A stretch of DNA of 14,431 bases from a virus. The stretch's first letter is position 1, and every line of letters starts with the position of its first letter. Location: the UHGV virus genome UHGV-1968440, one strand, 5' to 3'. This document shows, piece after piece, positions 58 to 10,235 of the stretch. Made by a program: the position numbers and the translations under genes. The notes beneath the pieces are model-generated. The model was not told the origin of the DNA. It ran no database searches and was given only the letters and a program-made list of their open reading frames with translations.

Positions 58-83
58 AAAAGAAAAAAGGCCGCAGAGCGGCC
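58..83 (-). terminator. Rho-independent terminator closing the leftward int-cargo operon
   Basis: 6-bp GC stem ggccgc/gcggcc (69..83) with 3-nt loop; on the minus strand it is followed by TTTTTTCTTTT (plus-strand A-tract 58..68); lies ~125 bp downstream of the stop of the 209..646 gene. Confidence 0.6.
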
Positions 84-208: not shown

Positions 209-646
209 TTACTTAATAACAGTAACCACAGCCACAAGCACAGCCATCGCAGACAGGACAATACCTGTGAGTAACCAAGTCTGATTTGCAAATGATTTCT
301 GAAGTTCAGTACGATGCTCAGCCATCTCAACTTTCAGAGACTGGCGTAAATCAGCCATCTCAGACTTCAGGGATTGGCGCGATTCTGCCATCTCAAGCCT
401 CAACCCTTCGCGAATCTCCAGTACATCAGATTTGGTAGCAAAGGATTCGCTTCTTGTGGTGAGAGTAATCAGGTTGTTTTTGATTTCAGTCACATCACTT
501 TCCAGGCAACTGACCCGCCGTTCAAGGTCGTCATTCATGCCATCACCTCCATCATTACCACTTCCTGTTACTTGGTTGTTGGATACATTATAGGCATTCT
601 CTTTCTTTTTTCTGAACCGCGAAATATGTGCAACATTCTCTGCCAT
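209..646 (-). CDS. Hypothetical coiled-coil, C-terminally membrane-anchored protein (prophage cargo downstream of int)
   Basis: Track ORF 209..649; ATG at 644..646 is the likely start (the GTG at 647..649 is the track start). Translation has three tandem ~11-residue repeats (LRLEMAESRQS / LKSEMADLRQS / LKVEMAEHRTE) and a hydrophobic C-terminal segment WLLTGIVLSAMAVLVAVVTVIK. Start overlaps the stop of the upstream gene (TGATG). Confidence 0.55.
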   Translation of the reverse strand: MAENVAHISRFRKKKENAYNVSNNQVTGSGNDGGDGMNDDLERRVSCLESDVTEIKNNLITLTTRSESFATKSDVLEIREGLRLEMAESRQSLKSEMADLRQSLKVEMAEHRTELQKSFANQTWLLTGIVLSAMAVLVAVVTVIK

Positions 647-1008
647 CACTTCTCATCACCCTGCTTGCCTACCCAGTTCATAAAGGCCCGGGCCGAGTAA
701 CGATGAACAAACCCACATCTGTTACAGGTAAGTCGGAATTCATAGTTATGGATATTTTCCCGATCATGTCCCTCATATCCCGGATACCCAGTAAATGGAC
801 CGATATAATCAAGCATAACAAGAGTGCCTAAATCACACTCCTCAGCAGTTTTCGGCTCAGACCCCACCTCAACAATATTCGTCAAATACATGTACATATC
901 CGTATCGCCACACGACAAACATTTTTCATTCGTAGACGACTCATTGAGAAAACGCGCAAAATTATCGAGCGTTGCCATTCTTTTAAGTTCATCTATATCA
1001 AACTTCAC
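646..1008 (-). CDS. Hypothetical Cys-rich protein (possible zinc ribbon), co-transcribed with int
   Basis: Track ORF 646..1008; GTG start preceded by a strong SD AGGAGGTG (reverse complement of 1016..1023) placed inside the int 3' end; two Cys pairs (CLSCG and CNRCG); starts 2 nt after the int stop. Confidence 0.55.
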   Translation of the reverse strand: MKFDIDELKRMATLDNFARFLNESSTNEKCLSCGDTDMYMYLTNIVEVGSEPKTAEECDLGTLVMLDYIGPFTGYPGYEGHDRENIHNYEFRLTCNRCGFVHRYSARAFMNWVGKQGDEK

Positions 1009-1010
1009 TC

Positions 1011-1988
1011 TTAAGCACCTCCTAGTGGATTAAACCTCACCGCATCCTGCAGGTAATCCGGCGCAAGATGGGCATAAATCATCGTTGTCTGAATCTTTGC
1101 GTGCCCCAGAATTTTCTGGAGCGTCAGAATATTGCCGCCGTTCATCATGAAATGACTGGCGAAGGTGTGGCGCAGCGCATGAACAGCCTGGCCGTCAGGA
1201 ACATCAGGTGCGACCGTTTTGATGACATCGCGAACCAATGAATAATCCAGCGTCGGAAACACCAGTTTCCCGCCCCGTTTTTTGATCTTTTCAAACAGGC
1301 TTTCAGAAATAGGAACGGTACGGTTTTTGCTGTTCTTCGTTTTTGAAAAAGTGATTCGACAATGAAGAACACGGCGCTGCTCCAGTGCCGCTACCTCGCC
1401 CCATTGCGCCCCGGTCGACAGAAGGATTTCGACAGCCAGCCGTTCATCGGGATTTTCAGCCAGTGCATCCAGCAACTGAACACATTCAGACTTACTCAGG
1501 TATCCCATTTCGCGCTCGTTAACCTTCATTCCTTTAAGGCCTTGAACGGGGTTATCGTTAAGAAAATGGCCGGATGAGATGAGTGCGGTAAACATCGCGC
1601 TTAACGCCCCAATCTCTCGATTTATGGTGCTGGGCTGTATCCCCTGCTCTATCCTGGACACACGTAGCTCGGTGAGCATCGTTGTATTAAGTTTATGCAC
1701 GCACGGGTCATCCATTGCCTCACTCAAGCGCAGCAATTTAAGGCGCGTGTTATGCCCTGACTTCATTAGCTGGCCGTGGTATTTCCACCACAAGTCAATA
1801 AGCACTGACAGCGGACGGCGATCAATAGAGTTTCCTTTCCACTCATTGTTATGCTGTTGCGCCAGCACCCACCGCTCATATAAAACTGCATCCGATTTCG
1901 TTTTAAATTTTTTACGAATGCGTTTGCCTTTACGCCCCTCCGGGCGTATGTCAAGAAGATACCCTCCCGGAATTGATTTTATGCTCAT
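1011..1988 (-). CDS. int: Tyrosine integrase, P2 Int-like
   Basis: Track ORF 1011..2138; likely start at internal M (MSIKSIPGGYLLDIRPEGRKGKRIRKKFKTKSDAV...) at 1986..1988, giving ~325 aa. C-terminal catalytic region HALRHTFASHFMMNGGNILTLQKILGHAKIQTTMIYAHLAP carries the R/H..H/Y signature of tyrosine recombinases. N-terminal segment resembles P2 integrase as I recall it. Confidence 0.9.
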   Translation of the reverse strand: MSIKSIPGGYLLDIRPEGRKGKRIRKKFKTKSDAVLYERWVLAQQHNNEWKGNSIDRRPLSVLIDLWWKYHGQLMKSGHNTRLKLLRLSEAMDDPCVHKLNTTMLTELRVSRIEQGIQPSTINREIGALSAMFTALISSGHFLNDNPVQGLKGMKVNEREMGYLSKSECVQLLDALAENPDERLAVEILLSTGAQWGEVAALEQRRVLHCRITFSKTKNSKNRTVPISESLFEKIKKRGGKLVFPTLDYSLVRDVIKTVAPDVPDGQAVHALRHTFASHFMMNGGNILTLQKILGHAKIQTTMIYAHLAPDYLQDAVRFNPLGGA

Positions 1989-2037: not shown

Positions 2038-2346
2038 TTAGCCGGGCTGTGTGCCAGTCTTGCGGGGTTTTTGAGAAGGCGATGTGCTTTTTGGCCCATC
2101 AGGGGAGAGAGACGGACTGATCTGCCCAGCAGCCTCATTTGTTTTTCCCGTCATAAGCCAATTCATGTACTTAAAAAAGCGAGGGTGATTAACAATCTTG
2201 ATAAGCACTTCGCCCCCTATGTTTTCAATCCGCCCCGTTTCATAACGACGCAAAGTGCCGATAGGCACATCAATCAGGCCGCAAAATTCTTCGCGCGTTA
2301 AATCCTCTGATTCACGAATCACTCTAATTTTTTCACCGATAAGCAT
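2038..2346 (-). CDS. Immunity repressor, P2 C-type small HTH protein
   Basis: Track ORF 2038..2382; probable start at M13 (MLIGEKIRV..., ATG at 2344..2346). HTH-like segment LTREEFCGLIDVPIGTLRRYETGR. Sits between int and a divergently transcribed Cox-like gene, as in P2-like phages. Confidence 0.75.
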   Translation of the reverse strand: MLIGEKIRVIRESEDLTREEFCGLIDVPIGTLRRYETGRIENIGGEVLIKIVNHPRFFKYMNWLMTGKTNEAAGQISPSLSPDGPKSTSPSQKPRKTGTQPG

Positions 2347-8959: not shown

Positions 8960-9919
8960 ATGAAAATTTACATCGACGACGGCTCCACCAACATCAAGCT
9001 GGCATGGACTGAGAACGGCGAACGCCGCAACGCCATCAGCCCGAACAGCTTCAAGTCGGAATGGTCTGCGCCGTTCGGTGGCTCGCAGCCTGCTAACTAC
9101 ATGCTTGATGGCGTGCGCTATGGTTTTGATCCGGTCAGCGATCGCTTTGTCCAGACGACCGACACGCAATACCAGTACAGCGATGTGAATGTCATTGCCA
9201 TTCATCACGCGCTGGTCAAATCAGACATCACGCCACAGGAAGTGGATGTGGTTGTTACCCTGCCACTGAGCGAATATTTCGACACAAACGCACAGCCGGA
9301 CATGGCCAACATCAACCGCAAAAAAGCGAACGTCATGCGCCCGGTGGAGTACCAGAACGGCGAAGCATTCACTATCCGTAACGTACGGGTTATGCCTGAA
9401 TCCATTCCGGCTGGCTTTAAAGCACTGGCTGACATGAGTCCGTTTGAATCCCTGCTGATTGTGGATTTGGGCGGAACCACGCTGGATGTGGCAAAGGTTC
9501 AGGGGCAACTGGCAGGTATCAGCCAGGTGTTTTGCGATCCACACGTAGGCGTTTCTCTTATGGCCGATGCCGTACTGTCGGTGATGGCCACTAACGGTAT
9601 GCGCACCAGTCACCACATCGCCAATACCATTATCGAACATCGCCATAATGAAGCCTGGCTGCGCCAGCACATCCACAATGACGCGCATTACGCCAGCCTG
9701 ATGGCGGTTATTCGTGAAAAGGAAGAAACACTGAAACAACGCGTGATCCGCGCGCTGGCGGTTTTTTCGGGTTACGGGCGGGTGATGGTTGTCGGTGGCG
9801 GGGCGGAGATTGTGGCACCCGCTATCCGCGAAGCCTGCGGAGTTAATGCGACTTTCATCGCGGACGGGGTGCCACAGTTTGCTCTGGTTAATGGGCTGTA
9901 CGCAATGGACAAGGAGTAA
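8960..9919 (+). CDS. parM: ParM/StbA-like actin-type segregation ATPase
   Basis: 319-aa ORF. N-terminal MKIYIDDGSTNIKLAW, then SPNSFK, YSDVNV, HHAL, MPESIPAGF, DLGGTTLDV, GVSL, VVGGGAE and LVNGLYAM match, in order, the motifs I recall from plasmid R1 ParM (actin/ASKHA fold). SD-like AGGA 8 nt upstream of the ATG. Confidence 0.85.
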   Translation: MKIYIDDGSTNIKLAWTENGERRNAISPNSFKSEWSAPFGGSQPANYMLDGVRYGFDPVSDRFVQTTDTQYQYSDVNVIAIHHALVKSDITPQEVDVVVTLPLSEYFDTNAQPDMANINRKKANVMRPVEYQNGEAFTIRNVRVMPESIPAGFKALADMSPFESLLIVDLGGTTLDVAKVQGQLAGISQVFCDPHVGVSLMADAVLSVMATNGMRTSHHIANTIIEHRHNEAWLRQHIHNDAHYASLMAVIREKEETLKQRVIRALAVFSGYGRVMVVGGGAEIVAPAIREACGVNATFIADGVPQFALVNGLYAMDKE

Positions 9920-9923
9920 ACCA

Positions 9924-10235
9924 ATGACGACACCAACCAGACGGATAAGTTTCTATCTGAAGCCCGCCGCCGTCAAGAACGAAGGAGAAGCATGCGCCTG
10001 GCTGGACAGCCTTACACCAGAAGCCCGCAAAAGCGGCCAACGCGTGGCTTTTCTGGCCGGGCTGGCACTTCTGAAGACGAATCCGGCAGAGGCTTACCGA
10101 CTGGCCGCATGGGCTGATGATGAGATGTTACCTGTGACACAAATCAGCTCAAAAAAGTTTGAAGCACAGTCTGCACCAGTGGCTAAGATAACCAGCCAGA
10201 TGGCTGGGAATATCCGGGCGTTATTTCCTGAGTAA
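9924..10235 (+). CDS. parR: ParR/StbB-like centromere-binding adaptor
   Basis: Track ORF 9789..10235 is an upstream-extended version; ATG at 9924 has SD AAGGAG (9911..9916) and follows the parM stop by 4 nt. Translation MTTPTRRISFYLKPAAVKNEGEACAWLDSLTPEARKSGQRVAFLAGLALL parallels the N-terminal region of R1 ParR as recalled (RTIAFKLNP...LDSIPQGERSRLNRAALTAGLAL). Confidence 0.75.
   Translation: MTTPTRRISFYLKPAAVKNEGEACAWLDSLTPEARKSGQRVAFLAGLALLKTNPAEAYRLAAWADDEMLPVTQISSKKFEAQSAPVAKITSQMAGNIRALFPE

Follow-up and report, generated by a model that had tools for sequence, protein, structure and literature searches.

Mycobacteriophage Sbash carries a repressor-linked two-gene exclusion system, gp30/gp31. 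P22 and lambda carry SieB, which comes with an internally initiated inhibitor, Esc, and dual-start holin/antiholin pairs are a further case in which one gene gives two membrane proteins. The lysogenic operon of phage P2 is Pc-C-int (PMC3936717), and in a 2026 survey the int-att interval counts among the minor defence hotspots of P2, with 3% of P2 systems (PMC13586616). The stretch analysed here is 14,431 nucleotides of the virus genome UHGV-1968440, called the window and numbered from its first base, and its subject is a pair of minus-strand genes at 209-1008 that are named ZnR, for a predicted zinc-ribbon protein, and TA, for a tail-anchored coiled-coil protein. ZnR and TA are the last genes of the C-int transcription unit of a P2-like prophage, and it is very probable that they form a module with the architecture described below and the status of prophage cargo. 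The preferred reading of their function, to which a probability of roughly 0.4 is given on sequence evidence, is that ZnR-TA would be a lysogen-expressed phage-exclusion or abortive-infection device.

The genes and signals of the unit are the following.

209-646, minus strand: TA gene, 145 amino acids (aa) from ATG 646, the RefSeq start.
646-1008, minus strand: ZnR gene, 120 aa, GTG start, 5 Cys, isoelectric point (pI) 4.9.
1011-1988, minus strand: int, a P2-type tyrosine integrase (Int_N 2e-28, Phage_integrase 4.5e-18, RefSeq start).
1017-1022, minus strand: Shine-Dalgarno GGAGGT of the ZnR gene, in Gly-Gly codons at the int 3' end.
2038-2346, minus strand: C repressor, with the operon logic taken from PMC3936717.

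Both open reading frames (ORFs) are located directly downstream of int on the minus strand, and the translational chaining to int claimed in the original prediction is seen in full. The terminal codons of int are CCA CTA GGA GGT GCT TAA, which place GGAGGT 8 nt ahead of GTG 1008, and at the ZnR/TA junction, GAG AAG TGA TGG, the TGA stop and the ATG start have one base in common (TGATG). An alternative TA start, GTG 649, lies one codon upstream of ATG 646 and gives a protein of 146 aa (ORF 209-649). The two ORFs match phrog_9415 (E 1.3e-42) and phrog_4293 (E 2.7e-29), both families of unknown function, and the pair is conserved in 86 complete E. coli genomes. They are regarded as real genes and not chance ORFs because of the PHROG matches, the conservation in E. 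coli and a gene order that is kept at 20-30% identity in other genera. Pfam and NCBIfam scans of both proteins gave no informative match, only coiled-coil or low-complexity noise, and no report of the ZnR-TA pair, or of a comparable exclusion pair of a zinc-ribbon and a coiled-coil membrane protein, was found in the literature searched.

The order on this one strand is C repressor, int, ZnR, TA and a terminator in the attachment (att) core, and a scan of positions 1-2600 revealed no credible terminator between C and TA. Co-transcription of the pair with int is consistent with the coupling signals, with the lack of an intervening terminator and with the published Pc-C-int operon of P2, and by the P2 operon logic the pair is expected to be expressed in the lysogen. 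A Cox-like gene is located at 2443-2721. C (2346) and the cox-like gene (2443) are divergent, and the region between them features a direct repeat, TATAAGTACAC, at 2359-2369 and 2393-2403, 34 bp apart, and TTGACA is found near these repeats at 2346-2351. By analogy with P2, the direct repeats and the TTGACA likely are the C-repressor operators and the Pe/Pc switch.

The prophage boundary on this side is set by the host gene ihfA, which encodes the alpha subunit of integration host factor (IHF), an accessory factor of P2 Int. Two features define the boundary.

59-83, minus strand: att core, AAAGAAAAAAGGCCGCAGAGCGGCC (plus strand), 25 bp; the rho-independent ihfA terminator, duplicated at the other prophage end.
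84-192, no strand: attP arm, phage side; conserved in all prophages at the site, and the left boundary of the cargo slot.

The DNA of the window is of E. coli origin. Every one of the 5426 complete E. coli genomes matches the query, and nearly all of the prophage-free ones match over positions 1-83 only. In strain RP437, which has an empty site (L002), the 83 bases run straight into the 3' end of ihfA, and the TUM13770 lysogen carries a P2-like prophage of ~38 kb between ihfA and btuC. Alignment of the empty site with both junctions gives copies of the core at 59-83 of the window, at L002 1559-1583 and at L003 1316-1340. Because the core is duplicated at 59-83 and beside ihfA, both genes are part of the element and are located between attP and int (att core 59-83, genes 209-1008, int 1011-1988), which agrees with the prediction that they belong to the prophage on the attachment-site side of int. 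The contrary arrangement, an att site between int and the two genes, was checked by the empty-site comparison and is not the case; the att mapping rules out the cargo genes as host genes.

The claim that the pair is closed by a terminator stands in part. A hairpin terminator is present on the minus strand at 83-59 (GGCCGC-TCT-GCGGCC then TTTTTTCTTT), and by terminator scan and RNA fold no other convincing site of this kind is seen in 1-2600. It is not the genes' own terminator but the att core, and this core comprises the whole ihfA terminator of the host, hairpin plus T tract on the transcribed strand. Since this terminator is carried in attP, the operon-closing terminator and the attachment site are one and the same, and neither ihfA nor the phage operon is left without a terminator once the phage has integrated. 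Function aside, this documents a phage whose attP core preserves a host terminator and ends its own lysogenic operon.

The attP arm is present in 299 of the 5426 E. coli genomes, whatever the cargo. It ends in TGTGGTCA (173-180), ctt and TGTGGATCA (184-192), two P2-type arm repeats, and the published arm-site consensus of P2 Int is tgTGGaCa (PMC3448106). Positions 173-180 are the sole exact match to this consensus in the window. The arm repeats are taken as meaningful because of their position beside the core and the literature consensus, the count of the consensus across the whole window being not above chance.

The space between the arm and int is a cargo slot with exact limits. Comparison with locus L004 showed that the identity between variants breaks both at the end of the attP arm (~position 192) and at the int stop (1011). 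Of the 299 arm-bearing genomes, 86 carry the ZnR-TA pair and 158 carry, in the same place, an unrelated single gene.

L004 1690-2085, minus strand: alternative cargo, a 131-aa protein beginning VEKTVNSDLHLGQYWRIDIV..., in the same slot as window 209-1008.

The 131-aa protein has no Pfam or PADLOC match. Its carriers include O55:H7 CB9615, E2348/69, O104:H4 and O111 strains, and a frameshifted copy of the gene is found in strain CH4793 (L039). Two divergent module alleles also occur in the slot with the same arm and int, as does the one frameshifted copy. The suggestion that the pair is moron cargo is strengthened by these other slot contents on the same int and attP, by the placement of the module after cI in lambdoid prophages and by the int-att hotspot (PMC13586616). 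The slot is exactly delimited and naturally swappable in P2-like phages, and it could be mined for further systems.

The slot contents also bear on the proposal that the pair is a recombination accessory, a directionality or targeting factor acting at the ihfA terminator. The genes adjoin int and attP and one protein has zinc-binding features, as such a factor might. This role is disfavoured by the 158 genomes, in which a near-identical int and the same attP arm serve unrelated cargo. Additionally, in lambdoid prophages the module comes after cI and the fetched flank has no called int, ZnR is acidic, and the prophage already has a Cox-like gene, which leaves a recombination function extremely improbable.

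An exhaustive profile search of 1.8 billion representative proteins identified 35 ZnR relatives at E <=0.001, and all of those traced to a source are Enterobacterales proteins with the name 'hypothetical'. At 20-30% identity the gene order persists among homologues in Klebsiella, Serratia, Salmonella, Rahnella, Photorhabdus and others, and in the intact pairs TA starts -2 to +17 nt from the ZnR stop (10/10 alleles). The arrangements are as follows.

Klebsiella, P2-like prophage: int, ZnR, TA.
Serratia, P2-like prophage: C, VasI-like gene, int, 278-aa gene, ZnR, TA, then host genes.
Salmonella, same ihfA-btuC site: int, ZnR, TA, btuC.
186-like prophage: ZnR, TA, int, the module being flanked by int on one side and by other lysogenic-side genes on the other.
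Two lambdoid lineages (Rahnella; Salmonella/Citrobacter; L030, L036/L037): cI-like HTH_3 repressor, ZnR, TA.
Regiella: decayed copy of the pair, beside a HigB/HigA-like pair.
Morganella: ZnR with no TA that can be recognised; the next ORF is small and encodes hydrophobic, membrane-like stretches.

The lambdoid placement directly after cI is the position of rexAB in lambda. A non-defence form of lysogenic conversion, in which a membrane scaffold would benefit the lysogen through changes in host envelope physiology, stress signalling, colonisation or virulence, draws equally on the operon and cargo evidence. The module has no likeness to known defence proteins, its carriers span many pathogenic and commensal lineages, and the DUF1640/CCDC90-like relatives of TA are, by family name only, mitochondrial scaffolds. 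However, divergent alleles on near-identical backbones together with unrelated replacement cargo are more typical of conflict systems, the placement directly after cI is rexAB-like, and no domain hints at a host target. Conversion without a defence role is judged an unlikely explanation.

Several of these loci have further features. The Serratia 278-aa gene between int and ZnR-TA (L007 3111-3947) encodes predicted membrane segments and is matched by neither Pfam nor PADLOC; it could be either extra cargo or a third component. Ahead of the module in the 186-like prophage come a gene for a 209-aa protein with an Flk_N domain and a hydrophobic tail, GVIFIIGAIAGALIF (L043 1688-2317), and a DUF8087 gene; the Flk_N protein is a second tail-anchored protein in this lysogenic-side string. 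In deposited phage genomes, megablast and tblastn matched only one Klebsiella P2-like record, and the lambdoid and O157 ZnR alleles had no match there. A scan of genome contigs with an alignment of close homologues found nothing in a collection that holds one genome per species. In the IMG/VR loci L028 and L029, ZnR can be 81% identical to that of the window and the adjacent TA ~95%, and the first ~10 residues of TA switch between MAENVAHISRF and MPDS(A/T)xILPF. The contrast in identity and the N-terminal switch indicate probable recombination breakpoints inside the module.

The product of the first gene was described as Cys-rich, and it features 5 Cys in 120 aa, four of which form two CxxC knuckles.

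910-921 (C30, C33) and 715-726 (C95, C98), minus strand: CxxC knuckles of ZnR.

C30, C33, C95, C98, G99 and W112 are invariant in 35 ZnR sequences, and the two invariant knuckles make ZnR a putative zinc-ribbon protein and predicted metal binder. The AlphaFold2 model of ZnR, with a predicted local distance difference test score (pLDDT) of 86, consists of N-terminal helices, a beta-sheet that carries both knuckles and a C-terminal helix. ZnR is acidic, with a pI of 4.9-6.0 in 9/10 alleles, and at a pI of ~5 DNA binding is unlikely. The only match of the ZnR profile in PDB sequences was XPA (E 0.04), which was dismissed as zinc-finger noise.

A Foldseek search of the PDB with the ZnR model returned as top match the zinc domain of the antitoxin MqsA (E 0.72, not significant). 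This match, although insignificant, is one of the points behind a toxin-antitoxin-like addiction pair that stabilises the prophage, in which TA would be a membrane toxin and the acidic zinc protein its neutraliser. The ZnR and TA genes are tightly coupled and TA is a small membrane protein; additionally, a hok/gef gene is found at the other prophage end, and the Regiella pair is located beside its HigB/HigA-like pair. The gene order and the ~85-residue cytoplasmic stalk with variable repeats are unlike known small membrane toxins, however, and the same prophage backbone occurs without the pair in 158 genomes. An addiction function appears decidedly unlikely.

TA was described as a tail-anchored coiled coil with tandem 11-residue repeats, and three repeat units and a C-terminal membrane helix are seen. 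From its N-terminus the protein runs through a disordered peptide, a Gly/Asp linker and a coiled coil whose length varies to the membrane helix, and the following features belong to its body.

215-277, minus strand: membrane helix W125-I145, with a single Lys after the helix.
296-396, minus strand: three 11-residue repeats, EMAESRQSLKS / EMADLRQSLKV / EMAEHRTELQK.
425-442, minus strand: beta-layer motif FATKSD, residues 70-75, with a helix break at residues 72-73 in the AlphaFold2 model.

The AlphaFold2 model of TA shows residues 1-37 as disordered (pLDDT <50) and helices at 38-71 and 74-145. Tandem Repeats Finder detects the repeats as a 33-bp array at 318-396 (2.4 copies, 81% matches, score 98), and the number of 11-residue repeats varies among TA alleles. 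The beta-layer motif, [aliphatic]-A-T-K-[polar]-[D/E], has been described in trimeric alpha/beta coiled coils, including DUF1640/DUF3782 proteins (PMC4786415, Hartmann et al. 2016). It is present in 9/10 TA alleles, where the first residue is Phe, Tyr or Leu and thus not strictly aliphatic, and the family profile of TA aligns its ATK on the ATK of PDB 5apz (Tcar0761) and 7o92. TA is probably homotrimeric, as beta-layers occur in homotrimers (PMC4786415).

Profile matches place TA near two families and in neither. Against Pfam PF07798 (DUF1640/CCDC90-like) the window TA scores 10.9 bits (E 0.42), below the gathering threshold of 33.5; the best allele, from L040, scores 25.8 bits, and 7/14 homologues match, all sub-threshold. 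PF10779 (XhlA) is matched below threshold by 4/14 TA homologues, with a best E of 3.6e-5, and the window TA has no match to it. TA is therefore called DUF1640/XhlA-like and not a member of either family. RefSeq and UniRef label some TA alleles DUF1640. The stalk of the lambdoid TA proteins (L036 3877-4431, L037 3877-4407) is of another kind, with GLKGQID repeats and without the ATK motif, and their membrane helix is followed by a presumed periplasmic (Pro-Ala)n tail, which has four more Pro-Ala units in L036 than in L037.

The membrane protein XhlA is predicted to work together with the holin XhlB, and PBSX lysis requires XhlA, XhlB and XlyA (PMC5589764). The sub-threshold matches of the four homologues, and a layout with the same coiled coil followed by a C-terminal membrane helix, raise an XhlA-type lysis accessory as a rival explanation, in which TA and a holin would set the timing of lysis or TA would cause early lysis through the holin of a superinfecting phage. 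The premature-lysis version overlaps with the abortive-infection reading. Against this role, the TA gene lies in a lysogenic operon that is shut off by Cox in lytic growth, the prophage has its own cassette of holin, endolysin (M15 peptidase) and LysB/C ~18 kb away (L003 20006-21264), and XhlA has no zinc-protein partner; the window TA itself, as noted, does not match the family. A lysis function carries little probability.

The N-terminal part of TA comprises three further features.

539-646, minus strand: N-terminal extension of TA, residues 2-37 (ISRFRKKKEN..., linker GNDGGDG).
536-550, minus strand: internal Met38 start candidate, ATG 538-536 with GGAGGT 550-545, which would give a 109-aa isoform.
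587-616, minus strand: promoter-like TTCAGA-18-TATAAT, 10/12 matches, a consensus match inside the N-terminal extension.

Many database entries start TA at Met38 and give a protein of 109 aa. The 29-39 codons upstream of this Met are open as far as the ZnR stop in 10/10 divergent alleles, and stops interrupt both other frames; multiplied together, the chance probabilities of the open frames give ~1e-10, with the alleles not all independent. The long form of TA is taken as coding because the upstream frame is open in every one of these alleles, and a non-coding status of the upstream 37 codons was rejected on the same grounds. This corrects a widespread annotation, since the 109-aa entries omit a coding N-terminal peptide.

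The peptide features a short hydrophobic motif (such as LPFP, YLFP, ITL or ISRF), and a Gly/Asp linker and the invariant Met come after it. Its similarity tracks that of ZnR (Spearman rho 0.45, nominal P 0.002, pairs not independent) and does not track that of the TA body (rho 0.13). L038 and L040 have TA proteins that are 84% identical with peptides and ZnRs that are unrelated, and L030 and L036 have in common a YLFP(E/Q) peptide motif and related ZnRs with stalks that are unrelated. No co-evolution of the whole proteins is claimed, because the pairwise identities of ZnR and the TA body are uncorrelated (rho 0.16-0.20). The pattern fits a peptide that would dock the cognate ZnR, with recombination at the linker.

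The internal Met is invariant in 14/14 TA homologues. The GGAGG in the Gly codons upstream of it exceeds a synonymous-codon null, computed with E. coli K-12 codon usage for all hosts, with P 0.003-0.04 in three alleles (window P=0.04), and in the combined null 0/5000 draws were as strong as the observed internal Shine-Dalgarno. These results suggest an internally initiated short TA isoform that would lack the docking peptide. A role of the promoter-like site at 616-587 in driving this isoform is speculative, and promoter-like sites are no more numerous than expected from shuffling.

Together these features lead to a mechanism for the preferred reading, phage exclusion or abortive infection. 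On the cytoplasmic side of the inner membrane TA would form a trimeric stalk, whose flexible N-terminal peptide would dock the cognate ZnR. A short isoform from the internal Met, without the docking peptide, may modulate the complex. The complex would be expressed alongside the repressor in the lysogen and would exclude superinfecting phages or abort their infection, with ZnR as sensor or regulator and TA as membrane-acting effector, which is the logic of lambda RexA/RexB built from unrelated proteins. A defence function is favoured by repressor linkage in three phage types, by the hotspot position, and by divergent alleles and unrelated replacements on one backbone; the prophage also has its own lysis cassette elsewhere.

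Several points weigh on the other side. PADLOC scans of both proteins and of the divergent alleles gave coiled-coil noise only, and the hotspot position is circumstantial, as int-att accounts for only 3% of P2 defence systems (PMC13586616). The Photorhabdus pair is found within a tail-gene cluster and not in a lysogenic operon. TA crosses the membrane with just one helix and has hardly any periplasmic portion, and a route from it to membrane damage or a block of DNA entry is not evident. The co-inheritance of peptide and ZnR could be plain linkage of adjacent DNA. The internal Shine-Dalgarno is absent in 2/8 alleles tested (Klebsiella and L036), and the null used for it applies one codon usage to every host.

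In its most detailed form the preferred reading becomes a hitherto unrecognised, Enterobacterales-specific two-component immunity system, in which a trimeric alpha/beta stalk anchored in the inner membrane would present an allele-specific zinc-ribbon sensor by way of its flexible peptide. Expansion of the 33-bp repeat would tune the stalk length, two isoforms from the one gene would control activity, and a cassette of sensor and peptide would recombine at the Gly-codon linker independently of a cassette of stalk and anchor. This full version is tentative and rather doubtful. Should ZnR-TA prove to be an exclusion system, it would add a new architecture, a zinc-ribbon sensor on a tail-anchored trimeric stalk, to the few prophage defences that are wired to the repressor.

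The same prophage also carries other accessory genes. The gpA-gpQ hotspot contains a plasmid-type partition pair on the plus strand (window 8960-10235), consisting of ParM/StbA at 8960-9919 (StbA_N 1e-80, ParM_N 3e-68) and a ParR/StbB-like gene at 9789-10235 (Plasmid_stab_B 2e-23). The ParM/ParR pair has no PADLOC match, and parM of TUM13770 is a pseudogene. At the opposite prophage end, a toxin gene of the Hok/Gef family is located beside the ihfA-proximal att, outside ogr (L003 1614-1754), and a DUF3800 gene separates ogr from the tail genes (L003 2438-3607); both are further accessory cargo.

Comparison with known systems places the module closest to repressor-linked gene pairs. The P2 cargo hotspots (tin/old at gpA-gpQ, Z/fun and the minor int-att) resemble it in the int-att position and in the alternative contents among close prophages, whereas the cargo described here is not a defence system recognised by PADLOC and its slot boundaries are exactly set. 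SieB/Esc and the dual-start holins provide a parallel for a possible isoform pair made from one membrane-protein gene by an in-frame internal Shine-Dalgarno start; there is no homology to SieB, however, and the second TA isoform is predicted only. XhlA (PF10779) is likewise small and phage-encoded, with a coiled coil at its N-terminus and a membrane helix at its C-terminus, but it lacks an N-terminal extension, and the TA gene is in a lysogenic operon with no adjoining holin or endolysin gene. The DUF1640/CCDC90-like proteins (PF07798) share with TA a beta-layer motif and a coiled-coil stalk that ends in a C-terminal membrane helix. They differ in that the N-terminus of TA is a disordered peptide with a Gly/Asp linker and not a folded head, and in that TA has an obligatory zinc-ribbon partner gene.

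Lambda RexA/RexB is, like ZnR-TA, a two-gene module of a soluble and a membrane protein in the repressor unit, and in the lambdoid relatives the two modules have the same place directly 3' of cI. Homology is not indicated, as neither ZnR nor TA has a Pfam, NCBIfam or PADLOC match. The membrane partner of the RexAB type is polytopic and channel-like, whereas TA combines a lone tail-anchor helix with a long coiled coil in the cytoplasm, and the soluble partner in the present module is a small acidic protein of the predicted zinc-ribbon type. ZnR-TA is best described as a pair from uncharacterised families and a variant of the repressor-linked two-gene prophage module.

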